Source of the DNA: Nitrospirota bacterium
GTDB lineage: Bacteria > Nitrospirota > 9FT-COMBO-42-15 > HDB-SIOI813
Assembly: GCA_016217665.1 (NCBI GenBank)
Contig: JACRHF010000041.1
Span: 1 to 52,271 of the forward strand
Length of the DNA: 52,271 bases
Direction: 5' to 3'
Positions 21,976 to 50,249 of the stretch are shown one piece after another (within the stretch, counting starts at the first letter, position 1; each line of letters opens with the position of its first letter). A program made the translations under genes and the position numbers. The notes under the pieces are model-generated. The model saw only the letters and a list, made by a program, of their open reading frames with translations, had not been told where the DNA came from and did no database searches.

Positions 21976-24669
21976 ATGACTAAAAAAGAAGCCAAAAGAC
22001 CAAAAAAGAAGGGCCTCAGGAAAAAGATCATTATAACCATCCTGGTCATAGGGGTATTTCCTTTGGTATTTGGCATCTATCTCTCCTATCTCGAGGCAAT
22101 AGATGCACTGACAAAGAGCATAGGGACTAACTTTGCGGCCATGGCAAAGGAGACGGCAAACAAGCTGGAGATCATCCTGGAGGAGGAGTTAAGCGAGGCA
22201 ACGGCTATTTCACTGATGCCTGATATTACAGAGGTTATTGAAAGCTCAAATCTCCATTACAGGGGCCAGGGAGAAAAAAATATCCGGAAGGGAATCCAGA
22301 CACGAAGAGAGCGATGGAGCCGTGCCGCAGGAGAGGACCCTTTCATAAAAGATATCGTGAATAATAAGGCATCTCTCTATTTAAAAAGCCTTCCCCACTA
22401 TGTAGAGGAATATATCGCTATCCTCGTGATGGATGAGAGGGGCGCCTTAGTCGCGGCGACAGACAGGGGGTATGATTACTATCAGGGGGATCAGAAATGG
22501 TGGCAGGCCATCCATCAGGACCGTGAAAAGGGGGTCTTTATCAGCGATATCAACTACGATAAGGGAAAAAGACATTACCTGCTGGAGATCGCCTTTCCTG
22601 TTTACACCAAGGGAAGAGGCCATAAACAGGGAATAGGGGCCCTCCATATCCTATATAAGGCAGAGAAGATATTCACGATTGTCGGAGATGTCAGGATAGG
22701 CAGGACCGGACACGCAAACCTTGTGTCCGGGAATGGCGAAATTATTATCTGCCCCATCTTCCCTCCCAGGAGCCATAGTATCAATGAAAAGCTGATCAGG
22801 GAAATAGTGAGTCGGATCTCCGGTTGGGGCATTGCAGAGGATGATGGCCATGGCGGAAGAGATTCTATCGTTGGCTTCTACCCGCTCAGATTAAGTAATC
22901 AGTTGGTGAGGGAGAGTTTTTCCGGGAATAGCTGGTATGTGTTTATACGCCAACACCCCACGGAGACCTATGCCCCTATCCAGAGACTTCTCACCAAGGT
23001 GTCTTTCATGGTATTTTCCCTGATTGGGGTGCTGACACTTATGGGATTTTATGCATCAAAGAGGATCGTGGAACCCATCCTCCTCTTAAAAAAGGAGTCA
23101 GAACTGATCGGGGAAGGGAATCTGGATCACCGAGTGGAGGTCCGCACAGGGGATGAAATAGAGTCCCTGGCAGAAGAATTTAATTCCATGGCGGAAAGGC
23201 TTAAGACTTATCATACACAGCTTAAAACAGAGAGTTATAAATTAGAGCGTATCCTCCTTTCTGCCGGTGAAGGGATCGTGGTTGCAGATAATGAAAACAG
23301 GGTGGTGATGATAAACCCTGTGGCGGAGAATATCCTTGGGGTCACGATACAGGAGGTCAAGGGGAAATCCATATTCCCCTGTCACAAGAATCCCGAAAGG
23401 GTGCAACAGTTGCTCCAATTAGAGGGGGCCTTACCTGTTCAGATTACCATACCCGTTGGGTCGAAGATCGTGGAAATCAATGTGACCTTAATAAAATCGG
23501 ATGAAGAGATGATAGGCTCCATGATGATAATGCGGGACGTTACCCTTGTCAAATATATGGAAGAGGAATTAAGAAAACATAGTGAGCAATTAGAGAATCT
23601 CGTCTATCGGAGGACAAAGGAAATTAACGCGACGAAGAAGTATCTTGAAAATCTTCTTGAAAATGCGAATGATGTGATCTATACCCTCAACAGGGATGGA
23701 ATGTTTACCTATGTGAATCAAAAAGTAGAGATGTGGGGGTATGAGAAGGAGGAACTGGTTGGGCAACGTTTCCATGCCCTTTTAGTCACTGAGGAGGCCG
23801 TGGATAAGGGGGCTGTGGAAATGGCGGAAATAAAACCTACCAATGAGATAAGGATAAGGAATAAAAAGGGGGAGGTGAGGGACCTCCTGGTCAGGACATC
23901 CCCGCTGAAAGGGGATGAAGGGGCGGTCATCGGTGTCCTCGGGATAGCCACCGACATTACAGACAGAAAGAGGCTGGAAGAGCAGATGATGAGGACAGAA
24001 AAACTGTCGGCGATTGGCCAGCTCTCCATGGGGGTTGCCCATGAGATCAACAATCCCTTATCCGGGATGATGAACTGCGTCAGGACATTAACAGAGGAGG
24101 GGGAAGATGAATCCCTCAGGAAGAGATATCTGGTCCTTCTGGAGAAAGGGTTAGACAGGATAGAGTCTATTGTAAGGCAGCTTCTGGGATTTGCCAAGGA
24201 GTACAAGTTTGAATTTACCCCTTGTGAGATTGATGACCTGATCATGGACACCATCCGGCTGATAGATCATAAGATAAAGAGAGGGGATATCCGCCTTCAA
24301 CTGAATCTCAATTGTAAGGAAAAAAAGCATCTCCTCCCTGGAAATCATATCCAGCAGGTTATTCTGAATATCATAATCAATGCCATTCACGCCATGCCGC
24401 AAGGGGGTATCCTTACCATAGAGACTTATGAGGGCCATAAAAACCTGATTGTGAAGATCTCCGACACCGGGATTGGAATTCCCAGAGAAAACATAAGACG
24501 GATATTTGATCCCTTTTTCACCACGAAGGATGTCGGTGTAGGAACCGGCCTTGGTTTATCGTTGAGTTATGGTATCATTAAAAAACTCGGGGGTGAGATA
24601 GACGTAGAGAGTAAAGTGGGCAAGGGGTCCACATTTAAAGTGGTGATTCCCCATAAGCAGGGAGAATAA
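21976..24669 (+). CDS. sensor histidine kinase: TM, Cache-like periplasmic domain, TM, HAMP, two PAS domains, HisKA and HATPase
   Basis: H-box AHEINNPLS, N-box LNIIINAIHAM, G1 DTGIGI, G2 GTGLGLS. The PAS domains show the PAC-like ends RDVT and TDITDRK. Confidence 0.9.
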   Translation: MTKKEAKRPKKKGLRKKIIITILVIGVFPLVFGIYLSYLEAIDALTKSIGTNFAAMAKETANKLEIILEEELSEATAISLMPDITEVIESSNLHYRGQGEKNIRKGIQTRRERWSRAAGEDPFIKDIVNNKASLYLKSLPHYVEEYIAILVMDERGALVAATDRGYDYYQGDQKWWQAIHQDREKGVFISDINYDKGKRHYLLEIAFPVYTKGRGHKQGIGALHILYKAEKIFTIVGDVRIGRTGHANLVSGNGEIIICPIFPPRSHSINEKLIREIVSRISGWGIAEDDGHGGRDSIVGFYPLRLSNQLVRESFSGNSWYVFIRQHPTETYAPIQRLLTKVSFMVFSLIGVLTLMGFYASKRIVEPILLLKKESELIGEGNLDHRVEVRTGDEIESLAEEFNSMAERLKTYHTQLKTESYKLERILLSAGEGIVVADNENRVVMINPVAENILGVTIQEVKGKSIFPCHKNPERVQQLLQLEGALPVQITIPVGSKIVEINVTLIKSDEEMIGSMMIMRDVTLVKYMEEELRKHSEQLENLVYRRTKEINATKKYLENLLENANDVIYTLNRDGMFTYVNQKVEMWGYEKEELVGQRFHALLVTEEAVDKGAVEMAEIKPTNEIRIRNKKGEVRDLLVRTSPLKGDEGAVIGVLGIATDITDRKRLEEQMMRTEKLSAIGQLSMGVAHEINNPLSGMMNCVRTLTEEGEDESLRKRYLVLLEKGLDRIESIVRQLLGFAKEYKFEFTPCEIDDLIMDTIRLIDHKIKRGDIRLQLNLNCKEKKHLLPGNHIQQVILNIIINAIHAMPQGGILTIETYEGHKNLIVKISDTGIGIPRENIRRIFDPFFTTKDVGVGTGLGLSLSYGIIKKLGGEIDVESKVGKGSTFKVVIPHKQGE

Positions 24670-24677
24670 AGAAAAGA

Positions 24678-26051
24678 ATGGAAGACGGAATTTACAGGCC
24701 TGAGATCTTGCTGGTAGAAGATGATGAGATTATGCGGGTGACCGTCTCAGATCATCTGAGGAAAAAAGGGTGGACTGTGACCGTGGCAGAGGATGGGGTG
24801 ATCGGGATGGAGCAGTTGAAAAAGAAGGATTTTGACATCGTGATCTGCGATATCCGGCTGCCCAAAAAAAACGGCATGGAATTGCTCAGGGAGGCCAAAG
24901 AGACCTCATCCCAGGCTGAGTTTATTATGATGACTGCCCATGGCACCATCGGCGATGCTGTTGAGGCGATGAGGCTTGGGGCCAGAGATTACATCACAAA
25001 ACCTTTCCACGTAGATGAACTGGTCATCCGTGTTAAAAAGATCATTGAGCATCATGTTCTGCTTGCAAAGTATGAATTGCTCAAGGAGAGCGTAGAGGAA
25101 AGGTACTCTTATCAAAATATCATAGGAAGAAGCAAAAAGATGCAAGCGATTTTCAATGTGATTGAGAAGGTGAGCAGGATAGATACCAATGTGATCATCC
25201 TTGGTGAGAGCGGGACAGGTAAGGGGCTTGTCGCCAATGTAATCCACATGATGAGCAGCAGGAGAGACAGGCCCTTTGTCAAGGTGAATTGTGCTGCCCT
25301 GCCCGGGACCCTGTTGGAGTCAGAACTGTTCGGGCATGAGAAGGGGGCCTTTACAGGCGCCATCAGGAAAAAGAGCGGGAAATTTGAATTAGCCGACAGG
25401 GGCACCATATTTTTTGATGAGATAGGAGATATCCCTCCCTTTGTCCAGGCAAAGCTGCTCAGAGTTCTCCAGGAACATGAATTTGAACGGGTGGGAGGGG
25501 AAGAGACCATCAAGGTAGATGTCCGTCTCGTCTCCGCTACCAAGGAAGATTTAGAGAATCTGGTCGCCAATGGGAAGTTCAGGGAGGACCTCTATTTTCG
25601 TCTGAAGGTGATCTCAATCCATCTCCCCCCTCTGAGAGAGCGGAAAGAGGACATCCCCTTTCTGGTAGAGGAATTCCTAAAGAGGTTCAATAAAAAATTA
25701 AAGAAAAATCTTACCCTGTCCAATGAGGCCGTAAAGTGCCTGATGTCTTATGACTATCCTGGAAATGTCCGGGAGCTGGAGAATATTATAGAAAGGACAG
25801 CCGCCATGACAGACAGTGATGTCATCATGCCTAAGGATATCCTTCACTCTTTTGACAAGAATATCCGGATCTACTCTGATAAAGAAGAGGAGAATCTGAC
25901 TCTCAAAGAATTGCTGACCCGGATAGAAAGGGAACATCTGATAAAAGTCCTTGCAGAAACGGACGGGAACAAGGTAGAAGCGGCGAGGATCTTAGGGATC
26001 AGTAGAAAAAATCTTTGGGAGAAACTCAAGGTGTATCACTTGTTAAAGTAA
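24678..26051 (+). CDS. sigma54-dependent response regulator (REC, AAA+, Fis-type HTH; NtrC family)
   Basis: REC phospho-acceptor context DIVICDIRLP, Walker A GESGTGKG, sigma54-contact loop EKGAFTGA, Walker B FFDEIG, and HTH AARILGISRKNLWEKLK. Confidence 0.92.
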   Translation: MEDGIYRPEILLVEDDEIMRVTVSDHLRKKGWTVTVAEDGVIGMEQLKKKDFDIVICDIRLPKKNGMELLREAKETSSQAEFIMMTAHGTIGDAVEAMRLGARDYITKPFHVDELVIRVKKIIEHHVLLAKYELLKESVEERYSYQNIIGRSKKMQAIFNVIEKVSRIDTNVIILGESGTGKGLVANVIHMMSSRRDRPFVKVNCAALPGTLLESELFGHEKGAFTGAIRKKSGKFELADRGTIFFDEIGDIPPFVQAKLLRVLQEHEFERVGGEETIKVDVRLVSATKEDLENLVANGKFREDLYFRLKVISIHLPPLRERKEDIPFLVEEFLKRFNKKLKKNLTLSNEAVKCLMSYDYPGNVRELENIIERTAAMTDSDVIMPKDILHSFDKNIRIYSDKEEENLTLKELLTRIEREHLIKVLAETDGNKVEAARILGISRKNLWEKLKVYHLLK

Positions 26052-26057: not shown

Positions 26058-26077
26058 CAGTTACCGCCCGGTAACTG
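26058..26077. promoter_or_regulatory. candidate enhancer (UAS) palindrome CAGTTACC-N4-GGTAACTG
   Basis: A perfect 8-bp inverted repeat centred about 106 bp upstream of the GG of the sigma54-type promoter at 26173. A near-identical palindrome lies at 29173-29190. Confidence 0.45.
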
Positions 26078-26172
26078 AGTGGTCATGCCTGTGTATCTCT
26101 TCAAATCCCTCTCATTCTTTTTTTCCTTTAAACCTTAACAGGTTACGAAGTTCTTCTTACGAATAAAACTAC

Positions 26173-26188
26173 TGGTATTCCTTTTGCT
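26173..26188 (+). promoter_or_regulatory. sigma54 (-24/-12) promoter for the cytochrome c-nirK-porin operon
   Basis: TGGTAT-TCCTT-TTGCT has the exact GG-N10-GC spacing of the TGGCAC-N5-TTGCW consensus. It lies ~53 nt upstream of the ATG at 26241, directly downstream of a sigma54 activator gene. Confidence 0.6.
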
Positions 26189-29158: not shown

Positions 29159-29172
29159 GCTTGGCACTGATC

Positions 29173-29190
29173 AGTTACCAGGCGGTAACT
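29173..29190. promoter_or_regulatory. second copy of the candidate UAS palindrome AGTTACC-N4-GGTAACT
   Basis: A 7-bp perfect inverted repeat, followed by direct GTAACTTCTT repeats at about 29185 and 29209. It is centred about 130 bp upstream of the TGGTAT element at 29310. Confidence 0.45.
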
Positions 29191-29309: not shown

Positions 29310-29325
29310 TGGTATCTGTCTTGAA
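29310..29325 (+). promoter_or_regulatory. possible sigma54-type promoter for the HCO-like/cyoE/sco/NOR-like operon
   Basis: TGGTAT-CTGTC-TTGAA has the same -24 hexamer as the 26173 promoter with correct spacing, but the -12 element is GA instead of GC. It lies ~61 nt upstream of the ATG at 29386. Confidence 0.35.
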
Positions 29326-29385
29326 TAAGTAATGACTACCTCGAGATCGTGATTCTAACCACAGAATGGAATAGAGGATAGATTT

Positions 29386-30810
29386 ATGATGCTAAAAGAG
29401 ATTGATGAAAGAACCGGCACTTTGTTATATGGATGGCTATTACTTGCCATCTCTTCTCTCGTATTTGCAGGGGTTTTTGCCTTTTTGATAGCCATGTCAA
29501 GGACCCCTCTGATTCAGGATTTTTTCTGGATAAAGGATTTTTTTCATAAAGGTCTTGTAGGCCATGTGATCCTGGCTTTTGTAATCTGGTTCCTCTCTTT
29601 TATGGGTGTGCTCTCGATAGTCTCTGCAGGATTAATTAGAAAAGGGAACTCCGGATTCAAGATGGGGTGGATAGGCCTTTTTAGTTCTTCAATAGGTACG
29701 TTTATGATAATAATCTCCACCCTCTCCGGATGGGGTTCTCCAAGACTTGCCAATTACATCCCTGTCTTGACCCATCCCATGTTTTATTTAGGGCTATTTC
29801 TTTTTGCTGCCGGCATATTTCTCCTTCTACTTGATATCCTACCAAATATCTTTAAGGACATTAACGAAAATGGGTCATCACTGATTGCCCATGGTATGGC
29901 CATAGCCGGGTTAACGGTCTTAATCGCCTTTATATGCTTTGGACTTGCATACTATTTTCTCCCCTCGCCGCAAATAGAAGGAGTTAATTTTGAGCTCCTC
30001 TTCTGGGGGGGGGGACATATACTTCAATTTACTAATACCATTTCGATGGTCGTTGTGTGGATTTTTTTGCTTCATTTAACCCTGGGGATTTTTCCCCTGC
30101 GGGAAGGCCTCATAAGAGTCCTTTTATGGGCCTATCTCTTATGTGTCCTTCCCGCCCCTCTTTACTTTTTCATTTATGACATCTCCACCCCGGAATATAA
30201 AAACAGCTTTACCCGTCTTATGGAATTTGGCATCGGTCCTCCAACAGGGATCATTATTATATCTATTATAGCGGCAATCATAAGACAGAGGATTCAGAAT
30301 AGAGAAAAACTCCCCTGGGGAAATCCCATGTTCTCTTCACTTGCCTTGTCTGTCTTAGTCTTTACACTGGGCGGGGTTATCTCCATGACCATAAGGGGTA
30401 GTAATGTGAAGATACCGGCCCACTATCATAGCGTAATAGGTGCAGTGACCCTTGCCTTTATGGGCATTACCTATCATCTCCTATCTTTGATAGACAGAGA
30501 GATCTATATGAAAAAGATTGGCAGGATTCAGCCTTATTTGTATGGTATGGGTGTATTAATATTTTCCCTGGGGCTCTTCTGGGCAGGTTCACACGGGGTT
30601 CCAAGAAAGACTGCCGGGGTTGCACAGAATCTTGATTCATACGGTAAGCTTGCTGGAATGGGTCTTATGGGACTCGGAGGGATTATTGCAATACTGGGAG
30701 GCGCAACCTTTGTCATTAATGCCATTTTCTCACTGTTAAAACGTAGAAAGACAGAAAATGTTGGGGCAGAAGAGGAGACTTATGGTAAAGAATATTCTGT
30801 CAATATTTAA
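29386..30810 (+). CDS. heme-copper oxidase subunit-I homologue lacking two of the three CuB histidines (paralogue A)
   Basis: 12-TM protein with the helix-II His (GLVGHVILAF), helix-VI LFWGGGHILQF and helix-X AHYHSVIG. Where B-family enzymes have HH, it has PLYFFIYDISTPEY. It is a paralogue of 44095-45492. Confidence 0.75.
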   Translation: MMLKEIDERTGTLLYGWLLLAISSLVFAGVFAFLIAMSRTPLIQDFFWIKDFFHKGLVGHVILAFVIWFLSFMGVLSIVSAGLIRKGNSGFKMGWIGLFSSSIGTFMIIISTLSGWGSPRLANYIPVLTHPMFYLGLFLFAAGIFLLLLDILPNIFKDINENGSSLIAHGMAIAGLTVLIAFICFGLAYYFLPSPQIEGVNFELLFWGGGHILQFTNTISMVVVWIFLLHLTLGIFPLREGLIRVLLWAYLLCVLPAPLYFFIYDISTPEYKNSFTRLMEFGIGPPTGIIIISIIAAIIRQRIQNREKLPWGNPMFSSLALSVLVFTLGGVISMTIRGSNVKIPAHYHSVIGAVTLAFMGITYHLLSLIDREIYMKKIGRIQPYLYGMGVLIFSLGLFWAGSHGVPRKTAGVAQNLDSYGKLAGMGLMGLGGIIAILGGATFVINAIFSLLKRRKTENVGAEEETYGKEYSVNI

Positions 30811-31639
30811 GATCAGGATAGGGATGCTGATCTCTTTCAGTGCTGTGGCAGGATATATTGTTGCTGAAAAGGGGACACCTTCTTTCCCCAGGATTTTCCT
30901 TCTTGCTGTGTTGACCCTTATGGCATCAGCCGGCGCAGGCGCTTACAATCAATACTACGACAGAGACATAGACGCGGTTATGAAAAGAACGGATAACCGC
31001 CCGTTACCATTGGGGGGAATCCGCTTAACTCATGGTGTAGCTTTTGCAGGAATCTTCCTCATCTTCCTGTCAGTTATCGGTGCCTTTTTCACTTTAAATT
31101 ACGTAGTATCACTGCATCTGTTTCTCGGTGCCTTTGTCTATGCAGTTATATACACAGTGTGGCTTAAGAGGCGAAGCTGGATCAATATAATAATCGGCGG
31201 GTTATCCGGCAGTTTTGCCGTACTTGCCGGAGGGGCGTCAGCGAACCCGGGGTTTTGTCTGCCTCCGATACTCCTTGCTGTTGTCTTATTTTTCTGGACT
31301 CCATCTCACTTCTGGAGTTTTGCTATAGTCCATAAAGAGGATTATCAAAAGGTCGGCATCCCAATGCTCCCTGTTATCCTCGATAATCATAAAAGCGCTT
31401 TATTGATACTATTAAACACCTTGTTCCTGTTTATCTCCTCACTGTTTCTTCTCTTTTTCGGCCATCTCGGTTTAATTTACGGTGTAATCGCCGTGTGTAC
31501 AGGAGTCTTTTTTATTGGAAGAAATCTTCAGCTCCTGATAAACCCAACAAAAGAAATCGCGTGGAAGAATTTTAAGGCATCTATAATCTATTTATCAATA
31601 ATCTTCATCGCTGTGATAGTAGACGTCAGTCTGAGCTAA
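30782..31639 (+). CDS. cyoE: protoheme IX farnesyltransferase (heme O synthase)
   Basis: UbiA-family motif NQYYDRDIDAVMKRTDNRPLP. A GAGGAG Shine-Dalgarno precedes the ATG at 30782. Confidence 0.88.
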   Translation: MVKNILSIFKIRIGMLISFSAVAGYIVAEKGTPSFPRIFLLAVLTLMASAGAGAYNQYYDRDIDAVMKRTDNRPLPLGGIRLTHGVAFAGIFLIFLSVIGAFFTLNYVVSLHLFLGAFVYAVIYTVWLKRRSWINIIIGGLSGSFAVLAGGASANPGFCLPPILLAVVLFFWTPSHFWSFAIVHKEDYQKVGIPMLPVILDNHKSALLILLNTLFLFISSLFLLFFGHLGLIYGVIAVCTGVFFIGRNLQLLINPTKEIAWKNFKASIIYLSIIFIAVIVDVSLS

Positions 31640-31641
31640 AG

Positions 31642-32553
31642 ATGATAAAAGGAATAAAAGGAATAAAAGGAATAATATTATCTATCCTGATCGTCTATTT
31701 TTATTTCACTACGATTACCCCTACCTTTTCCTCCGCCTTTGCCTCACAGCCTGAAGATTCAGAGGCGATCAGAGCAATGATGGCTGCTGAACAGTCAGTA
31801 GGGAAACAGATAGTGGATTATGTTTTTACAGACCAGGATGGAAACAGGTTTCATTTAAAGGATCTGTATAACAAACCTCTCATTATCAGTTTTGTCTACA
31901 CAAATTGTCCCCATACCTGTTCAACGATTACAGCAAGCCTGGCCGCTGCAGTAAAAGAAATCGAGAATCCACAACCCCCCCTTAATCCCCCTTTACTAAA
32001 GGGGGAAAGAGGGGGATTTGATGTTATGACCATAGGATTTGATTATGAGAGAGATACACCAGAGAGGATGCTGGAGTTTGGCAAGAGATTTACTAATGAC
32101 TTTAGCCACTGGAAGTTTGTAACTGCAGATAGAGATACCATCGAAAGATTCTCAAGGGATATTGGATTTTATTACACCAAAAGAGGGAATGATTTTAGTC
32201 ATTTAAATATGATCTCTATGATAGCAGGTGGGAAAGTATATCAACATATTTACGGGGTCAATATTAAGAGCAGTGATATTGTTACTCCATTAAATGAACT
32301 ATTGACAAAGAGAAGCGAAGGAAAAAGGCTGGCAAATCCTATAGGCTGGCGGGACAGGCTGATAACCATGTGTTCTTTGTACGATGAGTCTACTCAGACT
32401 TACAGGATCAATTACTACTATATAATCAGATTCTTTTTAGAACTTATGTCTCTCGCTGCTATCTTTTTCTTCATGTGGAAGAGGGAGGTCTATTCCCTTT
32501 ATACCCGTGTGATGATGACAATGGTAAGGATAAAAAGGAGAGGATATGCGTAA
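31642..32553 (+). CDS. SCO1/SenC copper chaperone with an in-frame repeat insertion and a C-terminal TM extension
   Basis: Thioredoxin-like CPHTC motif and conserved His (FSHLN). The insert is PQPPLNPPLLKGERGGFD. The N-terminus carries IKGIKGIKG from a 9-bp x3 tandem repeat (31645-31671). Confidence 0.8.
   Translation: MIKGIKGIKGIILSILIVYFYFTTITPTFSSAFASQPEDSEAIRAMMAAEQSVGKQIVDYVFTDQDGNRFHLKDLYNKPLIISFVYTNCPHTCSTITASLAAAVKEIENPQPPLNPPLLKGERGGFDVMTIGFDYERDTPERMLEFGKRFTNDFSHWKFVTADRDTIERFSRDIGFYYTKRGNDFSHLNMISMIAGGKVYQHIYGVNIKSSDIVTPLNELLTKRSEGKRLANPIGWRDRLITMCSLYDESTQTYRINYYYIIRFFLELMSLAAIFFFMWKREVYSLYTRVMMTMVRIKRRGYA
31973..32019. repeat. G/C-run palindromic element inside the SCO1 gene
   Basis: AACCCCCCCTTAATCCCCCTTTACTAAAGGGGGAAAGAGGGGGATTT, read in the same frame (PLNPPLLKGE) as the lipB copy. 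Confidence 0.85.
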
Positions 32554-32781: not shown

Positions 32782-33306
32782 ATGCCGATAACATCTCCTG
32801 AAAAATACTGGTGGAAACCAGCAGATAAGGAAGAAAAAATATGGATTTCCATCGCATTATTATGGTGCCTTGTGCTGACGATCATGATGCCCCTTATGCA
32901 TCTAATAGGTACTCAGAACCCTTCAGTCAATCCGATGAAGATCAGACCACAGGATTACAGGACAGTGAGTGAGGCATTTATAGAAAAATATAAGGTTGGA
33001 GAAGAGCAGGGTATTCCTGTTGTTGAACCACCTGATGGCGCAGATGTGTACCTTAGGGCGCAGATGTGGACATGGACTCCTATACTGAAACTCAAGAAGG
33101 GTGTAAATTATAAGTTCCATATATCGTCAGTGGACCTGATGCATGGATTTTCACTGATGCCGCTTGTTATGAATTTTCAGGTAGTGCCAGGCCATGACAA
33201 TATATTAAACATGACGCCTACATCAGCCGGGACATTCCATATCATCTGTAATGAGTTTTGTGGGATAGGCCACCATACAATGGTAGGTAAAATAATCGTG
33301 AGTTAG
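32782..33306 (+). CDS. B-family-type HCO subunit II (single TM plus cupredoxin with a CuA site)
   Basis: VDLMHGF and CNEFCGIGHHTM give the H...C-x3-C-x3-H-x2-M CuA ligands. Size and layout resemble ba3 subunit II. Confidence 0.85.
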   Translation: MPITSPEKYWWKPADKEEKIWISIALLWCLVLTIMMPLMHLIGTQNPSVNPMKIRPQDYRTVSEAFIEKYKVGEEQGIPVVEPPDGADVYLRAQMWTWTPILKLKKGVNYKFHISSVDLMHGFSLMPLVMNFQVVPGHDNILNMTPTSAGTFHIICNEFCGIGHHTMVGKIIVS

Positions 33307-33369: not shown

Positions 33370-34905
33370 ATGGCAAGTGAATTAGTGTTTAGAACCTGTC
33401 CCATTACAGGGAAAAAGGTTTATGCAGTCACTCAAAACCTGATATGGATAAATGCAGTAACAGCAGTAGTGTTTATCCTTGTAGGCGGGATAATGGCATT
33501 TCTGGTTGGGATGACACGCTGGCCTGCAGTCCATCTGCTGCCTGCTGACCTGTTTTATAGATTCCTGACAGCCCATGGACTGAATATGCTCATATTCTGG
33601 ATCATATTCTTTGAGATAGCAGGTCTATATTTCGGATCTTCAGTTTTGCTTAATTCAAGACTTGCGGCGCCAAAGGTTGCATGGCTGGCATATATCCTGA
33701 TGCTTGTTGGGGCAGTTCTGGTTGATATCATGGTATTCACCGGTAAGGCAGACGTAATGTTCAGCTCTTATGTCCCGTTGCAGGCTGATCCGAAATACTA
33801 CCTTGGGATTATCCTTTTTGCTGTCGGCGCCCTGATAGGATGCGGCATCTTTTTTGGGACATTGGCAATAGCCAAGGCAGAAAAGACCTATGAGGGGTCT
33901 GTTCCTCTGGTCACTTTTGGTTTAGCTGCGGCTGCCATCATTGCTGTTTTCACCCTCGCATGTGGCGCCATAATTTATATACCGACATTCCTGTGGTCTC
34001 TTGGGCTGATAACAAACTTAGACCCGGGTGTATACAGGTTAATCTTCTGGGGAATGGGCCATTCGTCTCAACAGATAAACGTAACAGCAATGGTCTCTAT
34101 ATGGTATCTCTTAGGAGCGTTGACTGTTGGGGCAAAGCCTGTTAATGAGAAGATATGCAGAAGCGCATTTTTCCTTTATATCTTGTTTATCAATCTTGCT
34201 TCAGAGCATCACCTTCTGACAGACCCTACTTTAAGTCCGTACCATAAGATGGTAAATACCTCTTACTTCATGTATCTGGCGGTGCTTGCCAGTATGATCC
34301 ATGCCCTGGCAATCCCAATGATGGTTGAGGTTGCCCAGCGGAAGAAGGGATTTACAAAAGGACTATTTGAATGGCTCACAAAGGCGCCATGGGGCGAACC
34401 TGGTTTTCCAGCCATGATCTTTTCCCTCTTCATATTCGGTTTTATAGGTGGTATCACAGGTGTGGTCTATGGTACAGAACAGCTCTCCATAAAGAGTCAT
34501 AACACATGGGCTATGACTGGTCATTTCCACGCTACTGTTGTAGGTGGAACCACCCTTGCCTTTATGGGCCTTACCTATTATGTGATTCCCCTCATCTTCA
34601 GGCGGGAGCTTATCGGGAAAAAACTGGCTGTCGTCCAGCCGTATATCTTTGGCATTGGAATAATTCTGATTGCATTAGGTATGGGAGGCGCTGGAACACT
34701 GGGTTCACCAAGAAGACACTGGGATATTACCTTTGCTCAGTCAGTTATTCCATTCTCATTTGACCCTGCTGTAATATTTTTTACAACAATAGCTGCCATA
34801 GGTGTATTAACCGCAGTGACAGGCGGGGCCATGTATGTTGGTGTGTCTGTGCTTTCAGTTTTCTTTGGCAGGAAGATGGCCGCCAATGAGGCCAAACTAT
34901 TATAG
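33370..34905 (+). CDS. B-family-like HCO subunit I lacking the His-Tyr cross-link tyrosine (candidate NO reductase or atypical oxidase)
   Basis: Helix VI reads FWGMGHSSQQINV (Gln where ba3 has Tyr). The CuB pair is retained (ASEHHLLTDPTLSPYHKM). Helix X reads TGHFHATVVGG. Confidence 0.8.
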   Translation: MASELVFRTCPITGKKVYAVTQNLIWINAVTAVVFILVGGIMAFLVGMTRWPAVHLLPADLFYRFLTAHGLNMLIFWIIFFEIAGLYFGSSVLLNSRLAAPKVAWLAYILMLVGAVLVDIMVFTGKADVMFSSYVPLQADPKYYLGIILFAVGALIGCGIFFGTLAIAKAEKTYEGSVPLVTFGLAAAAIIAVFTLACGAIIYIPTFLWSLGLITNLDPGVYRLIFWGMGHSSQQINVTAMVSIWYLLGALTVGAKPVNEKICRSAFFLYILFINLASEHHLLTDPTLSPYHKMVNTSYFMYLAVLASMIHALAIPMMVEVAQRKKGFTKGLFEWLTKAPWGEPGFPAMIFSLFIFGFIGGITGVVYGTEQLSIKSHNTWAMTGHFHATVVGGTTLAFMGLTYYVIPLIFRRELIGKKLAVVQPYIFGIGIILIALGMGGAGTLGSPRRHWDITFAQSVIPFSFDPAVIFFTTIAAIGVLTAVTGGAMYVGVSVLSVFFGRKMAANEAKLL

Positions 34906-35350: not shown

Positions 35351-37465
35351 ATGGGTTCTTTAGGAAGAAGAATCGTACATACTATTGATGGTTGGACAGA
35401 TCGTATCATCCCGCCTAAATATAATCCATTATACTGGCTGGGCACACTATGTTTCGTTTCCCTGATGCTGATACTTATAACCGGTAGTTACCTGTTTTTA
35501 TTTTATAAGACCGGCGCCCCTTACGAATCAGTTCAGTACCTTACTGTCAACCAATGGTATATTGGCGGCTATTTGCGGAGTATACACCGCTATGCCTCTG
35601 ACGGGTTAATTTTGTTCATGACGCTTCACCTCGTGCGTGAGTTTCTTCTCGGCAGATACCGTCAGTGGAGATGGTTATCCTGGGTTTCAGGTGCTGCCCT
35701 CCTGGTTGCCTGTCTTATCCTTGGAATTATGGGATACTGGCTGGTTTGGGATGGACGGGCCCAGTTAATTGCCCAGAAGACCGCCCAATTACTTAATGAT
35801 ATCCCAATATTTGTTGAGCCACCTTCACGCTCATTTTTAAGTGGTGATACCATCAGCAAGATGTTGTTCTTTGTCCTCCTTCTGGGACATATAGGCATAT
35901 CACTGATAGGTATCAGCGCTTTAGTATTTATACATACATCGAGAAATGCCAGGCCAGTGCTTAAACCTCCGCGCGCAATTTCTGTTGCACTAGTGATTGT
36001 GCTCTCTGCATTATCCTTCATTGTCCCGGCTACTAATGCCCCAATGGCTGATCTGGCTAAGCTGCCAATTAATATTCCTTTTGATTGGTTCTTTTTATTT
36101 GTGTATCCATTAACCTCTGCCCTGTCGAAGCGGGCCTTCTGGTTCACATCCGCCAGCGGCGCCTTATTACTTTTTACAGCGCCATGGATTGGAAGATTCA
36201 GAAAGCCTCCGGCAGCACAGGTAATTCTGGAGAAGTGTGTCGGTTGTGAGCAATGCAATAAAGACTGTCCCTATGAAGCCATCAGAATGGTCCCCAGAAA
36301 AGACGGGAGGCCATATCTCCTGCAGGCAGAGGTGCTGGTTAACAGGTGTGCAAGTTGCGGTATCTGTGTCGGCTCATGTGATTCTAAAGCGGCTGACCTT
36401 CCTGACAGGACATTGGAGCAAACAGAAAAGGAGATAACCAGACTTTTAAATCTGCCGCAAAAGCAGGGTAGTGGGCCAAAGATACTGGGTCTGGTATGTG
36501 AAAAGAACATCAGGCTGGATAAGTTTATAAATGCAGAAAACAAAAGTCTTAAAGGGATGCCAAATGTTTTCGTTATTACATTCGTCTGTTCCGGTATGAT
36601 TCATCACTCCACGATTGAATATGCCCTTGCATCAGGTGCAGAGGGTGTATTTGTAAGCGGCTGTCAGATAGAGGAATGTTACTACCGTGAAGGTTCCAGG
36701 TGGTCGCATGCAAGGTTGATGGGAGAGAGGGCGCCTGTTGTCTTACCATTGAAAGGCACAACAAGCGACTACTCACGAATCCGTTCATACCGGCTATCTC
36801 CTCTCCGGGCCAAAGACCTCATAAATAAGATAGGTCTCTTTCAAAAAGAACTTGAGCAGAAAACTTCTGTCAGGGCCTACAGGCCTATAGAGACTATGAT
36901 ACCCGGGGAAGGGACATACAAGAAAGTGGCGGCACTTTGCATTATTCCACTGCTTTTGCTGCCTGCCTTCCTCATCTCCTTTCTGTCCACAAAACCAACA
37001 TACCCTTTCTATAGCAAAGACAACGCGTTAATAAAATTTACCTTCCAGCATTCTGGTAAACAGGAGGATTGTAAGGAAATAACTGAGAAAGAAACAGAGA
37101 GTAAACTTAAACATATGAGGAAGACAAACTCCCCTTATTCCCGCATGAGGATGGATTGTGCGAGAAAGAGGCTTCCCAGTTATGTAGAGTTAGATTTAGA
37201 CAGGAGAAATATATTATCCAGGGTCTATCACCCTACAGGCCTGAGCGGTGACGGGTCCACATTTGCCTATGAGGAAATACCTATAGCCCCAGGGACACAT
37301 GAAGTCACGGTCAGAATGAGGGATACCAAAGATGTCAGCAATTTTGACTATAACTTTGAAAAGAAAATAAACCTTGAAGCAGGACAAGTCGCTGTCATTG
37401 ATTTTGACAGTGATAACAATAAATTTCACATCATGGGGCAGAGTGAGGAGGAAAAAGGTGAATAA
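35351..37465 (+). CDS. fusion protein: dihaem cytochrome b6-like membrane domain, 2x[4Fe-4S] ferredoxin domain, MvhD/FlpD-like domain, an extra TM and a ~170-aa C-terminal domain
   Basis: Haem His pairs IHRYASDGLILFMTLH and GHIGISLIGISALVFIH. A PEWY-like PFDWFFLFVYP. CVGCEQCNKDCP and CASCGICVGSCD. FlpD-like VCSGMIHHSTIEYALASGAEGVFVSGCQIEECYYREGS. Confidence 0.8.
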   Translation: MGSLGRRIVHTIDGWTDRIIPPKYNPLYWLGTLCFVSLMLILITGSYLFLFYKTGAPYESVQYLTVNQWYIGGYLRSIHRYASDGLILFMTLHLVREFLLGRYRQWRWLSWVSGAALLVACLILGIMGYWLVWDGRAQLIAQKTAQLLNDIPIFVEPPSRSFLSGDTISKMLFFVLLLGHIGISLIGISALVFIHTSRNARPVLKPPRAISVALVIVLSALSFIVPATNAPMADLAKLPINIPFDWFFLFVYPLTSALSKRAFWFTSASGALLLFTAPWIGRFRKPPAAQVILEKCVGCEQCNKDCPYEAIRMVPRKDGRPYLLQAEVLVNRCASCGICVGSCDSKAADLPDRTLEQTEKEITRLLNLPQKQGSGPKILGLVCEKNIRLDKFINAENKSLKGMPNVFVITFVCSGMIHHSTIEYALASGAEGVFVSGCQIEECYYREGSRWSHARLMGERAPVVLPLKGTTSDYSRIRSYRLSPLRAKDLINKIGLFQKELEQKTSVRAYRPIETMIPGEGTYKKVAALCIIPLLLLPAFLISFLSTKPTYPFYSKDNALIKFTFQHSGKQEDCKEITEKETESKLKHMRKTNSPYSRMRMDCARKRLPSYVELDLDRRNILSRVYHPTGLSGDGSTFAYEEIPIAPGTHEVTVRMRDTKDVSNFDYNFEKKINLEAGQVAVIDFDSDNNKFHIMGQSEEEKGE

Positions 37466-38771
37466 TGTATCAGACCATAGGGTATTACTGACGAGGGATA
37501 TCCCTATGAGTGACTTCCCCTCTTTGGAAACAATCTTTATAGACATGTATGTTGCAAAGAATGGTTATAAGGCAGCGACTAAAGCCCTTCAGGAGATGAA
37601 GCCAGGAGATATTATCGAGGAAGTAAAGAAGTCTGGATTGCGTGGTCGTGGCGGCGGTGGATTCCCAACAGGAAAAAAATGGGAAATGGTGGCCGGAGCA
37701 GCAGGAGAGGAAAAGCATGTCTGCTGCAATGCCGCCGAGGGGGAACAGGAAACATTTAAAGACCGGTGTCTTATACGTTCAAACCCGCATCAATTAATTG
37801 AAGGAATCATTATTGCCTCCTATGCAGTCGGTGCCCATGTGTCTTATTTATATGTCAATGAAAACTATCGTGAAGAGATTACGTTGCTTGAGAAGGCGCT
37901 AAAAGAGGCTCAGGGAAAAGGGTATATCGGTAAAAAAATTCTGGGAACAGATTTCTCACTGGATATTCATATTCAGAAGTGTCCTGATCAATATGTTGCT
38001 GGCGAAGAAACGGCAATGATAGAGGTCATAGAAGGCAGGGCGGCCAAGCCATGGCAAAAGCCCCCTTATTATCCTGCTAACAGGGGCATCTATGGAAATC
38101 CGACCCTTGTAAATAATACAGGAACCTTGTCAAACATACCTCATATTGTCCTTAAAGGCGGCGATTGGTTTTCTCAAGTCGGCTCTCGACAGAACCCAGG
38201 AACAATGCTTTTTACCCTCACCGGTGATATAAACAGACCTGGTATATATGAGTTGCCACTGGGAACCACACTTAGCAAACTTATCAGCAATTGTGGTAAT
38301 GGTTTAAAGGATGGGAGAAGATTTAAGGCAGCCTTTCTGCCGGGTAATTCCCCTCTCACAGAATCACATCTTGAAATCCGCCTTGACTTTGAATCATTAA
38401 AAGAGGCCGGCTCAGGGCTCGGTTGTGCTGCTGTCACTGTCCTGGGGGATGGAACCTGTGCAGTAGCTACAACACTGAAATTTTCCAGGTTTTTTATGAA
38501 TGAGTCATGCGGACAATGCCCCCCCTGCCAGATGGGAACTGCCAATATGGCCATACTGCTTCAGAAAATTGAAGATGGTCATGGAAAAATAGAAGACCTT
38601 GCCGCCATTGAAAACATATGCAGCCTTTCAAAGGGGCAGGGCTACTGTCAGCTTCTATCAGGGGCTGTCTTTGTTGTTGAAGGTGCAATCAGACACTTCA
38701 GAAAGGAGTTTGAGGCCCACATCCATGAAAAGAGATGTCCTCTGCAAAGCAGTTCCGGCAATACGTTATAA
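37458..38771 (+). CDS. NuoF-like NAD(P)H-binding FMN / [4Fe-4S] flavoprotein
   Basis: GLRGRGGGGFPTGKKW (FMN/NADH site), GEETAMIEVIEG, and N3-type cluster ESCGQCPPCQMG...C. The GTG at 37458 has a GAGGAGG Shine-Dalgarno and overlaps the upstream stop (GTGAATAA). Confidence 0.8.
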   Translation: MNNVSDHRVLLTRDIPMSDFPSLETIFIDMYVAKNGYKAATKALQEMKPGDIIEEVKKSGLRGRGGGGFPTGKKWEMVAGAAGEEKHVCCNAAEGEQETFKDRCLIRSNPHQLIEGIIIASYAVGAHVSYLYVNENYREEITLLEKALKEAQGKGYIGKKILGTDFSLDIHIQKCPDQYVAGEETAMIEVIEGRAAKPWQKPPYYPANRGIYGNPTLVNNTGTLSNIPHIVLKGGDWFSQVGSRQNPGTMLFTLTGDINRPGIYELPLGTTLSKLISNCGNGLKDGRRFKAAFLPGNSPLTESHLEIRLDFESLKEAGSGLGCAAVTVLGDGTCAVATTLKFSRFFMNESCGQCPPCQMGTANMAILLQKIEDGHGKIEDLAAIENICSLSKGQGYCQLLSGAVFVVEGAIRHFRKEFEAHIHEKRCPLQSSSGNTL

Positions 38772-38783
38772 AATCTACTTAGA

Positions 38784-40274
38784 TTGAAGAAATTATCCCT
38801 CTATATTGAAGACTGGGCCAACAGGTGTTTCTCGCCCCGATTCAATCCCTTCTATTACCTTGGAGCAATATCCACCCTCTTTTTCATTATCCTGTTAATA
38901 AGTGGTATATACCTGTTTATATTTTACAGGACCAACAGCCCTTATCAGATAGTCCAGGATTTAACTGAAAAACAATGGTATCTGGGTGGCATTATGAGGA
39001 GTATTCATAGATATGCCTCTGATGGCCTGATAATCTCCCTCCTCCTGCATACCCTGCGTGAATATGTTAACGGTAGATACAGTCACTACAGATGGCTGGC
39101 CTGGGTCTCCGGCGTTATACTTTTTATTATCAGTTTGATATTAGGTATTTCAGGCTACTGGCTGGTATGGGACCAAAGGGCCCAGTTAATTGCCCTGAAG
39201 ACATCAGAACTGTTAAATGATGTGCCCCTTTTTATTGAACCTCCATCCAGGTCTTTTCTCAGCAATGAGTCCCTCAGTGGAATGCTCTTTTTCCTTTTGC
39301 ATTTTTTGCATTCAGCTTTACCGTTTGCCATGCTGATACTCATAGGCATACACATCATGAGATGTTCACGCCCGGTACTCAAGACACCTAAGGTTATAAC
39401 GATTGCTGTAATAATCATGCTGCTTATGGTATCTGTTATTAAGCCTGCCACCAGCGCCAAACCTGCAGACCTGAATAGATTACCCCTAACCCCCCCGTTT
39501 GATTGGTTCTTCTTTTTCATATACCCGGTGAAGTCTATTCTTTCAAAACCCATCTTCTGGTCGATGACTACAGGTGTAATCATGATACTCTTTATAATAC
39601 CCTGGATTAAAAGGCATAGGCCGCCTGTTGCACAGGTTGTATTAGAAAACTGCACAGGCTGTGACCAGTGTAATAAGGATTGTCCCTATGGGGCCATCCG
39701 TTTACAGCCCCGCACAGACAGGTTAGCCTATAAAATGGAGGCTGTTATTATGCCTGAGAGATGTGCTGCCTGCGGTATATGTGTAGGAGCCTGCGATTTT
39801 AATGCCGTCAATCTCCCTGGTATGAATGATGTACAGATTAAGGAAGATATAATCAATCTTTTATCTGGCATTCAACGGATAGACAAAAAACCAAAGATAC
39901 TGCTGTGGGTCTGCAAACAAAGCATAAGATTTAATGGTACATTGGATATCATAAAAAGGATGACAAATGTTAAAATTATATCATTGCCCTGTATTGGCAT
40001 GATTCAATCTGAGATGATAGAGGCAGGATTTAATGCCGGCGCAGACGGTATTTTTATCTGCAGTTGCGTGATGGGTGATTGTCAGTACCGTAAAGGCAAC
40101 ATCTGGCTGCAGGAAAGGCTGAGAGACAAAAGACCGCCGCTACTGAATAAAAGAGTTGACCGACGTAGAATCAGGGAATACTGGATGTCGCCTGTCCATA
40201 CTACAAGACTTGTTGCAGAAATAGATCTCTTTGAAGAGGAGCTTAGTGCCTATCATATATCCGGATCTACTTAA
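38784..40274 (+). CDS. paralogous cytochrome b6-like / 2x[4Fe-4S] / MvhD-like fusion (shorter; no C-terminal extension)
   Basis: IHRYASDGLIISLLLH, LHSALPFAMLILIGIH, PFDWFFFFIYP, CTGCDQCNKDCP, CAACGICVGACD, PCIGMIQSEMIEAGFNAGADGIFICSCVMGDCQYRKGN. The apparent start is TTG with no obvious Shine-Dalgarno. Confidence 0.75.
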   Translation: MKKLSLYIEDWANRCFSPRFNPFYYLGAISTLFFIILLISGIYLFIFYRTNSPYQIVQDLTEKQWYLGGIMRSIHRYASDGLIISLLLHTLREYVNGRYSHYRWLAWVSGVILFIISLILGISGYWLVWDQRAQLIALKTSELLNDVPLFIEPPSRSFLSNESLSGMLFFLLHFLHSALPFAMLILIGIHIMRCSRPVLKTPKVITIAVIIMLLMVSVIKPATSAKPADLNRLPLTPPFDWFFFFIYPVKSILSKPIFWSMTTGVIMILFIIPWIKRHRPPVAQVVLENCTGCDQCNKDCPYGAIRLQPRTDRLAYKMEAVIMPERCAACGICVGACDFNAVNLPGMNDVQIKEDIINLLSGIQRIDKKPKILLWVCKQSIRFNGTLDIIKRMTNVKIISLPCIGMIQSEMIEAGFNAGADGIFICSCVMGDCQYRKGNIWLQERLRDKRPPLLNKRVDRRRIREYWMSPVHTTRLVAEIDLFEEELSAYHISGST

Positions 40275-45611: not shown

Positions 45612-46067
45612 ATGTTCAGACTGAGCAGGGCCGCAGAGTATGGCGTGAGGGGGATCCTTTATCTTGCCAGCAACTATTCTGAAGACAAGGTCTCTGTGAT
45701 CGAAGAGATATCAAAGGCGCAGGATGTCCCGTTGCCTTATATGGCGAAGCTGTTTCAGACATTGGCCAGGAAGGGGTTTGTTAAGTCGTTCAAAGGGCAG
45801 AAGGGTGGGTTTGTCCTTACCAGGCATCCGAAAGAGATCAGCCTGTTGGAGGTGATAGAGGCGATGGAAGGACCTATCTTCTTAAATGTCTGTCTTTTTC
45901 ATGAGGGTTATTGTCCAAGAGATAAGGTGTGTTCTGTCCATGAGGTATGGGCAGAGGCGCAGAAAAGGCTTGTAGATTATCTAAGGGGGTGTAACTTTGC
46001 AGAGATGGCAATCTCGGCAGCAAAGAAAACAAAAGCGTTTAATCAAAAGAAAGGAGGGCCAAAATGA
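45612..46067 (+). CDS. Rrf2-family Fe-S cluster transcriptional regulator (NsrR/IscR-like)
   Basis: N-terminal wHTH (RAAEYGVRGILYLA...ISKAQDVPLPYMAKLFQTLARKGFV) and cluster ligands CLFHEGYCPRDKVCSVH. Confidence 0.85.
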   Translation: MFRLSRAAEYGVRGILYLASNYSEDKVSVIEEISKAQDVPLPYMAKLFQTLARKGFVKSFKGQKGGFVLTRHPKEISLLEVIEAMEGPIFLNVCLFHEGYCPRDKVCSVHEVWAEAQKRLVDYLRGCNFAEMAISAAKKTKAFNQKKGGPK

Positions 46068-46874: not shown

Positions 46875-46900
46875 TCTGAGGAGATGTAGGGGGGAAGGGC

Positions 46901-48390: not shown

Positions 48391-48405
48391 AAGGGGGGTA
48401 GAACC

Positions 48406-50025: not shown

Positions 50026-50049
50026 CCGTAAAGGTAATACCTCGGTGGA

Positions 50050-50213: not shown

Positions 50214-50249
50214 TTCACAGTTGGGTTATCCGTAAAGGAGGGATAGACA

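Follow-up and report, generated by a model that had tools for sequence, protein, structure and literature searches.

A conserved branch of the haem-copper oxidoreductase superfamily that lacks two of the three CuB histidines, encoded twice in a Nitrospirota contig

What can a haem-copper oxidoreductase (HCO) do once most of its distal metal site is gone? The question is raised by a 52,271-nucleotide contig of a Nitrospirota bacterium (assembly GCA_016217665.1, contig JACRHF010000041.1; this whole stretch is called the window below), which encodes two homologues of HCO subunit I that keep the ligands of both haems but only one of the three histidines that hold CuB or FeB. We refer to the two paralogues as X_A and X_B and to their family as X. 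The three histidines have been treated as a constant that defines the superfamily, and the latest survey finds the active-site histidines fully conserved in every HCO family except gNOR, where one of them is substituted (PMC11214002). An earlier interpretation of the window, made by a model from the letters alone (the sequence-only reading), had described X_A as a 474-residue, 12-helix subunit-I homologue with a one-histidine distal site, which would exclude a conventional oxidase or nitric oxide reductase (NOR). Both the description and the exclusion hold. On the comparisons given here, X is a distinct CuB-free branch of the superfamily, unannotated and apparently undescribed; no description of a CuB-less subunit-I family was found in the openly searchable literature, subscription-only literature being outside our reach. 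Tentatively, we favour the view that X is a CuB-free, haem-only redox enzyme, probably containing haem O, fed from the periplasm and acting on NO or O2.

The loss of the metal site is confirmed. All the motifs on which the initial description relied are in place in X_A: VGHVILAF at residue 58 (His60), FWGGGHILQF at 206 (His211) and AHYHSVIG at 345 (His346 and His348), while residues 258-265 read PLYFFIYD where the neighbouring HCO (33370-34905) has SEHHLLTD with His280-His281. The single Pfam domain of X_A is COX1 (PF00115; 92 bits against a cut-off of 34.8, compared with 202 bits for the neighbouring HCO), and a phmmer search against all PDB chains matched subunits I of HCOs only, Thermus ba3 being at the top (E ~1e-9). 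His60, His348 and His346 align to ba3 His72, His386 and His384. In the phmmer register, ba3 His282/His283 fall on Phe261/Phe262 and ba3 Tyr237 on Phe215; MAFFT and hmmalign place the histidine pair one residue away, on Tyr260/Phe261. Since the three programs agree to within one residue and residues 231-345 contain no histidine at all, we could rule out that some other alignment would give X_A its two histidines back. The AlphaFold2 model, built on 36 homologues, has twelve long helices (pLDDT 88, pTM 0.89), and foldseek superposes it best on ba3 subunit I chains (TM-score 0.80), with RdNOR also among the structure hits. X_B, which is 50% identical to X_A (E 4e-138), has Ile273/Tyr274 at the corresponding positions of helix VII. 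Thus, the replacement of the helix-VII pair in X_A by aromatic residues and the absence of the helix-VI tyrosine, both proposed earlier, are confirmed, and only His211 is left of the three-histidine site. Because only one of the three CuB/FeB histidines is kept, X cannot be a conventional oxidase or NOR.

Other functional residues have changed as well. The helix-VI cross-link tyrosine (ba3 Tyr237) corresponds to Phe215 in X_A and to Phe, Leu, Val or Ile across the family. In NorB, the glutamate ligand of FeB sits four residues after the helix-VI histidine; in X_A, this cNOR/qNOR position is the same Phe215, and two of the histidines are gone too. The K-channel set of ba3 (Tyr244, Tyr248, Ser309, Thr312 and Thr315) is not conserved in X, an assessment that depends on the alignment: Thr312 is replaced by Phe in 100 of 122 members, Thr315 mostly by Ala, Tyr244 is variable and Tyr248 falls into an alignment gap. 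Arg407/Lys408 of X align to ba3 Arg449/Arg450, the pair known for its role with the haem propionates. Neither X_A nor X_B matched any NCBIfam model at E ≤0.001, and COX1 was the only homology found in X, with none to CtaA/Cox15 (PF02628) or to the WWD family of CcmF/CcsA. Public records name the homologues 'cbb3-type cytochrome c oxidase subunit I', 'B(O/a)3-type chain I' or hypothetical.

X turned out to be a large family. A word-indexed search of 5.8 billion proteins returned hundreds of full-length relatives of about 465 residues, and a profile search of 1.84 billion representatives at 50% identity yielded 722 clusters with E ≤1e-30, rising to 1311 with E ≤1e-10. When a single genome was scanned for each GTDB species, X was present in at least 591 species and at least six phyla; the taxa are Deltaproteobacteria/Thermodesulfobacteriota, Nitrospinota, Nitrospirota, SAR324 and Gamma-, Beta- and Alphaproteobacteria, and the isolates include Terasakiella, Telmatospirillum and several Magnetospirillum/Paramagnetospirillum species. 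A tblastn search of a plasmid collection gave no match, that is, no annotated plasmid copy. When 386 members were aligned to the family profile (in X_A numbering), His60 was found in all 382 members aligned at this position, His346 in 386/386, Trp207, His211 and Tyr347 each in 385, Gln214, His348 and Lys408 each in 384 and Arg407 in 383. Phe215 is present in 300 members, the others having a hydrophobic residue there, and Tyr347 is Phe in all other HCOs compared. The helix-VII pair follows the pattern [I/L/F/V/Y][Y/F]. The same picture was obtained with sets of 122, 75 and 386 homologues. Most homologues lack the His-His pair: both CuB histidines are absent in 98% of the 386, but 8/386 keep one and 1/386 keeps both. 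By position, residue 260 is His in a single member (P0162, with His-His retained) and residue 261 in 8/386. These rare cases suggest descent from an ancestor with the full metal site. The gene order at the P0162 locus is DUF420, X and a gene for 154 residues, DUF420 being the family of the oxidase assembly factor CtaM.

The family is under purifying selection, with dN/dS (the ratio of non-synonymous to synonymous substitution rates) of 0.05-0.29 for pairs of X genes across genomes. Together with the family-wide residue counts, these values indicate that the CuB-less state is ancient, selected and nearly universal in the family. Although the catalytic residues are lost, X is not a non-functional leftover of a duplicated oxidase gene: the dN/dS values, about ten residues invariant across phyla and the intact state of both X_A and X_B refute a pseudogene or decaying remnant, which the sequence-only reading had already doubted on account of the two paralogues. 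Taken jointly with the sensor role discussed below, a remnant is highly improbable.

Where does this branch belong? In a neighbour-joining tree of 75 X proteins, 25 neighbouring B-like subunits, 12 A-type subunits, ba3 and the cbb3 subunit of the window (neighbour-joining being the only method used), X is monophyletic and sister to the family of the neighbouring tyrosine-less, NOR-like B-type HCO, here denoted NB. X is about 26% identical to NB, 20% to ba3 and 16% to A-type enzymes. Two features set X and NB apart from the rest, namely a glutamine three residues past the helix-VI histidine and about a dozen further positions. All 24 NB homologues have GH[SPTA]SQQIN in helix VI, with no tyrosine, and an intact His-His pair. 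The genes for NB and X usually share one operon, together with those for haem O synthase and SenC/SCO. In contrast to X, NB retains the full set of three metal histidines, and its Gln-Gln corresponds to Gln-Phe in X; the two families also differ at Glu203, Tyr347 and Lys408. The last three are among the invariants specific to X (Val58, Val61, Phe69, Asn123, Glu203, Phe206, Phe215, Tyr347 and Lys408). It is NB, not X, that has been described before: the window protein is 57% identical to the enzyme of a Magnetospirillum operon, with the same motif, and this tyrosine-less enzyme is the 'degenerate B family oxidase' of Degli Esposti et al. 2019 (PMC6431628). NB is the 'degenerate B family / ba3-a1' enzyme of Magnetospirilli (PMC6431628) and, judging by gene order and the literature, probably the sNOR of PMC11214002; database names did not confirm the sNOR assignment, and this label is provisional.

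Comparison with better-known families sharpens the contrast. Subunit I of ba3 (PDB 1EHK/3S8F) and X have in common the 12-helix core, the low-spin histidine pair, the proximal histidine, the first CuB histidine, Trp229 and the propionate arginine pair. However, ba3 His282, His283 and Tyr237 are hydrophobic or aromatic in X, the K-channel residues are not kept, the second arginine has become Lys, Phe385 has become Tyr, and the X genes of the window have no dedicated subunit II next to them. The cNOR/qNOR enzymes (NorB) share with X a two-haem subunit-I fold without the cross-link tyrosine or a cytoplasmic proton channel, NorB taking its protons from the periplasm (PMC11214002), but NorB has FeB bound to three His residues plus one Glu, and X is related to the B rather than the C family. 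The eNOR, sNOR, bNOR, nNOR and gNOR families, compared here by their published description, lack the tyrosine as X does but have three metal ligands (His3, or His2Asp in gNOR) against one in X (PMC11214002). Among them, gNOR, likewise compared by description only, is a B-family-related HCO with an active-site histidine replaced, but there a single His has become Asp, giving a His-His-Asp set that can still bind metal, whereas in X two histidines have given way to non-ligands (PMC11214002).

The gNOR precedent, with one His replaced by Asp (PMC11214002), nevertheless makes one consider an alternative non-haem metal site in X, held by His211 with Gln, Tyr, Glu or Asp ligands, in which case X would be an unconventional NOR or oxidase. 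Consistent with such a site, at least one of the two helix-VII histidines survives in 9/386 members, a His is found at position 264 in 35/386 and Asp265 is common, and genes for CbbQ/NorQ-type AAA+ proteins lie 3′ of X in four Nitrospirota loci. Yet no candidate ligand beyond His211/Gln214 is conserved, positions 260, 261 and 264 being mostly Ile, Leu, Phe or Tyr; Glu203 lies two helical turns from His211; and no NorD/VWA partner was found beside the NorQ-like genes 3′ of X in Nitrospirota. We therefore regard such a site as improbable.

To compare the genomic surroundings of X, we called the open reading frames (ORFs) of 80 genome loci, labelled them against the window proteins and clustered the remainder; 31 of these loci have at least 8 kb on both sides of X (full-flank loci). 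Conserved partners of X are haem O synthase, SCO, cytochrome b/Fe-S/FlpD proteins and a second HCO operon, which may be of the NOR-like B-type or of the A-type. No neighbour is as constant as haem O synthase, whose gene is present in 27/31 full-flank loci and lies directly 3′ of X in 21/73 loci. SCO is found in 20/31 full-flank loci and another HCO subunit I in 22/31; in the 9/31 without another HCO subunit I, X adjoins haem O synthase in six. The recurrent orders are coxII - NB - X - cyoE - sco; NB - cyoE - sco - cytb/FeS - cytb/FeS - X; ctaE - sco - coxII - coxI (A-type) - (ctaB/DUF420) - X; and X - cyoE alone. In the window, as noticed before, haem O synthase and SCO1 genes come directly after X_A, and a CuA subunit II and the tyrosine-less HCO follow. 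In operons of the cyoABCDE type, the synthase serves the enzyme that uses haem O, and the link between X and haem O synthase mirrors this arrangement.

The same link can be read differently. X, a paralogue of the catalytic subunit, might be a factor for handling or assembly, which takes haem O from CyoE/CtaB and passes it on to subunit I of the neighbouring oxidase or NOR while the latter is being made. Until then, His346 and His211 would hold the haem between them where the high-spin site used to be, and the low-spin haem b of X itself would keep it reduced, a logic that resembles CtaA-CtaB, Surf1, CcmF or the NifEN scaffold by analogy. The constancy of haem O synthase, fused to X in P0122, and the occurrence of X in operons of two unrelated HCO types along with SCO, CtaA and DUF420 speak for this, and neither proton channels nor CuB would be needed, so that the loss of both fits. 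By functional analogy only, CtaA/Cox15 and CcmF are also like X in having one stable haem b and a second, histidine-lined site for haem in transit. Their genes, too, adjoin or fuse with pathway partners, as in CtaA-CtaB fusions and in the partnership of CcmF with CcmH and CcmI (thioredoxin-like, TPR), and the fusions and neighbours of X are analogous. However, CtaA and CcmF have no sequence or fold relation to X, and CtaA genes co-occur with X in 18/80 loci, so X is no replacement for CtaA. Moreover, the haem site is deeply buried in the HCO fold, as is generally known, which would make release difficult, and the invariant Gln214, common with a catalytic sister family, suggests a reaction pocket that has been retained. 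A haem-handling role is the strongest rival reading, though in our judgement an unlikely one, and the evidence on electron entry bears on it directly.

The sequence-only reading had noted that no subunit II gene accompanies X_A. This is true of the window, where neither X_A nor X_B has a dedicated CuA subunit, and such a gene was also not found directly 3′ of X in the 73 loci closest to the window; it does not extend to the whole family. In Paramagnetospirillum magnetotacticum MS-1, the operon runs 53-residue ORF - coxII - NB - haem O synthase - SCO - cytb/FeS/FlpD - 167-residue ORF - X - 159-residue protein. The latter is a cupredoxin whose CuA motif, CAEYCGLGHTKM, is complete; it is a paralogue of the NB subunit II, and its gene begins so early that it overlaps the X stop codon. 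In P0148, P0171 and P0217, which we read directly, X continues into an extra helix and a cupredoxin domain with the full CuA motif; for P0390, P0391 and P0415, the same X-CuA fusion was deduced from length and 95-98% query coverage. At the P0148 locus, the order is DUF420 - X::CuA - haem O synthase, with no further COX1 gene within 8 kb upstream or in the 2.6 kb of contig downstream. The MS-1 CuA gene and the X-CuA fusions imply that some lineages have X as subunit I in a complex of its own, made of two subunits and fed by CuA. A translationally coupled CuA subunit and several such fusions are hard to square with a chaperone, and so are DUF420 - X::CuA - CyoE operons that have no client HCO nearby.

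There is a related view that would accommodate an electron supply. By analogy with NifEN, X could be a cofactor-maturation scaffold derived from a duplicated catalytic subunit rather than an enzyme acting on a small molecule: haem O would be received straight from the adjacent or fused synthase, held between His346 and His211, kept reduced or even modified, and delivered to nascent oxidase or NOR subunits. Its low-spin haem would be fed by CuA or cytochrome b, and one sub-branch would have been recruited to cytochrome c maturation clusters. We consider this rather unlikely.

The fusions are not limited to CuA. Cytochrome b is fused to X in P0130, and genes for cytochrome b/Fe-S/FlpD homologues occur in 33/80 loci; in Nitrospirota loci, the same trio of genes as in the window (35351-40274) stands beside the NOR-like enzyme and X. 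Such a range of redox partners, by fusion or adjacency (CuA, cytochrome b, an 11-haem cytochrome c), would also suit a pure electron-transfer or adapter subunit. Here, His211 would be the sixth ligand of the second haem, and X would form a lateral two-haem relay at the periplasmic level, tying neighbouring terminal enzymes or the quinone pool to CuA domains, multihaem cytochromes or cytochrome b/Fe-S modules. The lack of a conserved proton channel is compatible with such a role, and WGGGH replaces bulkier residues before His211, so helix VI could come closer to the haem, if the structural consequence is as we suppose. Without a helix shift, though, the CuB histidine is too far from the haem iron in HCO structures, as is commonly known. 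A relay also leaves the tight link to haem O synthase unexplained, as well as the invariant Gln214 one turn below His211 and the stand-alone DUF420 - X::CuA - CyoE operons, which have no obvious electron sink. These points make a relay distinctly unlikely.

One sub-branch of X is found in yet another setting. P0140, P0259 and P0263 consist of X, a helix and a TPR domain, and P0189 of X, a helix and a thioredoxin-like CAPC domain. All three X::TPR proteins examined directly follow CcsA. In a recurrent metagenomic cluster (L092-L171), the order is an 11-haem cytochrome c (780-1180 residues), ResB, CcsA, X or X::TPR, a TPR protein and a thioredoxin-like protein, and a subset of these clusters has a CcmI-like gene further downstream. 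At face value, the position of X after ResB-CcsA, near thioredoxin-like and CcmI-like genes, and the X-thioredoxin-like fusion favour the handling of haem. On the other hand, the 11-haem cytochrome can account for ResB and CcsA in multihaem clusters, of which X is not an obligatory part: it is present in roughly a quarter of the 11-haem cytochrome/ResB/CcsA loci and absent from the others. In this sub-branch, X may either aid haem handling or be the membrane redox partner of the multihaem cytochrome, standing amid the maturation genes of the latter.

In our view, these observations are best accommodated, if still tentatively, by a haem-only redox enzyme. X would bind two haems, the second most likely being haem O from the adjacent and sometimes fused haem O synthase. 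Partners that can stand in for one another would deliver electrons to it at the periplasmic face: a CuA subunit of its own in the Magnetospirillum-type and fused systems, cytochrome b/Fe-S proteins elsewhere and a shared subunit II or a cytochrome c in the window. The low-spin haem would relay them to a haem-only pocket with His211 and Gln214 in its lining; the small oxidant bound and reduced there would most likely be NO or O2 (or else peroxide). Gln214 is common only to X and its NOR-like sister family, which argues that a ligand-binding pocket has been retained and that X is more than a haem holder. Proton uptake would be from the periplasm, with the family-specific Glu203 as a possible route; with no cytoplasmic proton path, the proposed reaction would not conserve energy. 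In the window, X_A would be the first gene of a sigma54-controlled operon co-regulated with NirK and would play an accessory or protective role in nitrite and NO turnover.

A number of points weigh against this proposal. Most members of X, including both copies in the window, have no dedicated subunit II. The placement of X in operons of two HCO types beside SCO, CtaB, CtaA and DUF420, with one CyoE fusion, is the pattern of an assembly factor, and one subclade sits, as an optional component, between CcsA and a TPR/thioredoxin-like gene in cytochrome c maturation clusters. Chemically, NO bound to a ferrous haem usually goes no further if a second metal is missing, and reduction of O2 to water takes four electrons. 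The distal histidine could itself ligate the haem, which would turn the site into a six-coordinate electron-transfer centre. Finally, the substrate of X could hardly be named from its sequence.

The link to nitrogen oxides deserves separate consideration, as the sequence-only reading had based it on the proximity of NirK and on a shared upstream palindrome. The palindrome is confirmed: the window contains exactly two copies of GTTACC-N4-GGTAAC (at 26060 and 29174), against 0.04 expected. A sigma54-like element, TGGTAT-N5-TTG[AC], also occurs exactly twice, 113 and 136 nt after the respective palindromes, and both elements are putative promoters. The copies in front of X_A are GTTACCAGGCGGTAAC and TGGTATCTGTCTTGA, the other pair preceding a cytochrome c - NirK - porin operon. 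From these sites we infer that the two operons form one regulon, which ties the X_A operon locally to nitrite and NO metabolism; by position and common sites, the sensor kinase and sigma54-dependent response regulator encoded next to them likely control both. Within the window, then, co-regulation of X_A with NirK is well supported by these sites and the adjacent response regulator, and this part of the earlier claim stands. As a property of the family it does not, since a NirK homologue was found near X in 0/73 related genome loci, which rules out NirK as a conserved partner. In Gammaproteobacteria, X has other neighbours that suggest a setting of denitrification: clusters c12, c15, c20 and c24 look, by eye, like haem d1 biosynthesis genes (NirF/N-, NirDLGH-, NirE- and NirJ-like), and c37, also by eye, is NosR-like, while c13 is a hemerythrin confirmed by Pfam. 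Upstream of X_A and X_B, inspection by eye revealed only weak half-site resemblances to an NsrR-type box.

Regulatory neighbours also raise the possibility that X is a membrane sensor of NO or O2 which signals to regulators. Rrf2 genes flank X in 5/80 other loci, some X genes have two-component systems next to them, and sensors commonly use a haem that has a distal histidine. However, an output domain is missing from X, the modules fused to it serve redox or biogenesis functions and none serves signalling, and a CuA subunit of its own implies electron flow, so this role shares the very low standing given above to a non-functional remnant. The shortlist drawn up earlier (enzyme, sensor or assembly factor) is thus still the right one, with the evidence favouring a redox enzyme or haem handling over a sensor.

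Whichever of these holds, X is a broad, conserved family that has discarded two of three histidines while keeping both haem sites and, in some lineages, its own CuA entry. If X is an enzyme, it shows what the scaffold can do with haem alone and offers a natural 'CuB knock-out' for the role of CuB/FeB in O2 and NO chemistry; it would also be an unrecognised player in the handling of N-oxides or O2 by nitrifiers, denitrifiers, sulfur oxidisers and magnetotactic bacteria. If it handles haem O, it would fill a gap in the supply of haem to B-type and NOR-type enzymes, which lack Surf1. In either case, since these genes are annotated as 'cbb3-type cytochrome c oxidase subunit I', metabolic predictions made from genomes count too many terminal oxidases and NORs.

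Table 1. Positions of X_A, X_B, their key residues and associated genes and sites in the window
Feature	Coordinates	Strand	Basis
X_A, 474-residue, 12-helix CuB-less HCO subunit-I homologue	29386..30810	+	ORF, Pfam COX1, AlphaFold2/foldseek, family conservation
X_A His60 codon (helix II), one of two axial low-spin haem ligands	29563..29565	+	aligned to ba3 His72
X_A codons His211-Ile-Leu-Gln214-Phe215 (helix VI): sole remaining CuB-type His, invariant Gln, Phe at cross-link Tyr position	30016..30030	+	
X_A codons Tyr260-Phe261 (helix VII), positions of both missing CuB histidines	30163..30168	+	aligned to neighbour His280/281, ba3 His282/283
X_A codons His346-Tyr347-His348 (helix X): second-haem ligand, family-specific Tyr, low-spin haem ligand	30421..30429	+	
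X_B, 465-residue paralogue, same pattern (His66, His224, Gln227, Ile273-Tyr274, His356-Tyr-His358)	44095..45492	-	identity, motif positions
Haem O synthase (CyoE/CtaB), overlaps X_A end	30758..31639	+	Pfam UbiA; NCBIfam TIGR01473 270 bits, above cut-off
SCO1/SenC copper chaperone	31642..32553	+	Pfam SCO1-SenC
CuA-type subunit II of downstream HCO	32782..33306	+	Pfam COX2; CuA motif CNEFCGIGHHTM in translation
NB, Tyr-less NOR-like B-type HCO subunit I, three-His site intact (GHSSQQIN; His280/281)	33370..34905	+	Pfam COX1 202 bits
Cytochrome b + 2x[4Fe-4S] + FlpD fusion (704 residues), NuoF-like (465 residues), second cytb/Fe-S/FlpD fusion (496 residues)	35351..40274	+	Pfam
Sensor kinase (dCache-HAMP-PAS-PAS-HisKA) and sigma54-dependent response regulator	21976..26051	+	Pfam
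Second palindrome copy (26060-26075) and sigma54-like element (26173-26187), upstream of cyt c - NirK - porin operon	26060..26187	+	
Palindrome upstream of X_A, putative enhancer-binding site	29174..29189	+	one of two window matches
Sigma54-like -24/-12 element, 136 nt past palindrome, ~60 nt 5′ of X_A start	29310..29324	+	pattern match
Rrf2-family regulator, three-Cys motif, divergent from X_B, leads A-type cta operon	45612..46067	+	rrf2_super 116 bits; IscR, NsrR below cut-offs
A-type oxidase cluster ctaE - sco - coxII - coxI - ctaA - ctaB beside X_B	46095..52066	+	translations

The remaining genes of the window add some detail to this picture (Table 1). The trio at 35351-40274 is likely the electron-supply module of the cluster. 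Its NuoF-like protein is an FMN/NADH subunit flanked by both fusions, and the three may provide a transmembrane route from cytoplasmic NAD(P)H to haems on the periplasmic side. About 100 residues at the C-terminus of the 704-residue fusion (35351-37465) form a domain without a Pfam match (..GLSGDG..), and the same domain is the separate 167-residue protein 5′ of X in Magnetospirillum (L087, 9368-9871). Just 5′ of the CuA gene, an ORF of 91 residues (32475-32750, +) has one predicted hydrophobic helix and no family match; the Magnetospirillum ORF of 53 residues occupies the matching position, and the 91-residue ORF may encode a small extra subunit like the 46-residue peptide of Bacillus CuA-NOR. 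The cluster of ctaE, sco, coxII and coxI next to X_B has counterparts with X in alpha- and gammaproteobacterial loci. A single ORF of 973 residues (40886-43807, +) is a fusion of the cbb3 subunits CcoN, CcoO and CcoP (NCBIfam PRK14485, ccoN, ccoO and ccoP); the same fusion has been reported in Nitrospina gracilis (PMC3578206), which suggests that the window comes from an organism resembling Nitrospinota. The GC content is 42-48% over 22001-42000, which comprises the kinase/regulator, NirK, X_A, NOR-like HCO and cytb/FeS genes, against 50-57% in the flanks, and on this compositional ground the respiratory block may have been acquired horizontally.

Two further arrangements were seen in other genomes. 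In the four Nitrospirota loci with a CbbQ/NorQ-type AAA+ ATPase (L016, L022, L026 and L028), this gene follows X and is in turn followed by a second SCO gene and a gene for a Cys-rich protein of 120 residues. In eight loci (L004, L012, L014, L015, L017, L021, L025 and L032), there is a four-helix fragment of 137 residues whose COX1 match is confined to model positions 1-145. A gene for a 75-residue NifU-like protein adjoins it in most of these loci, the pair lying upstream of, and divergent from, the X or NB operon.

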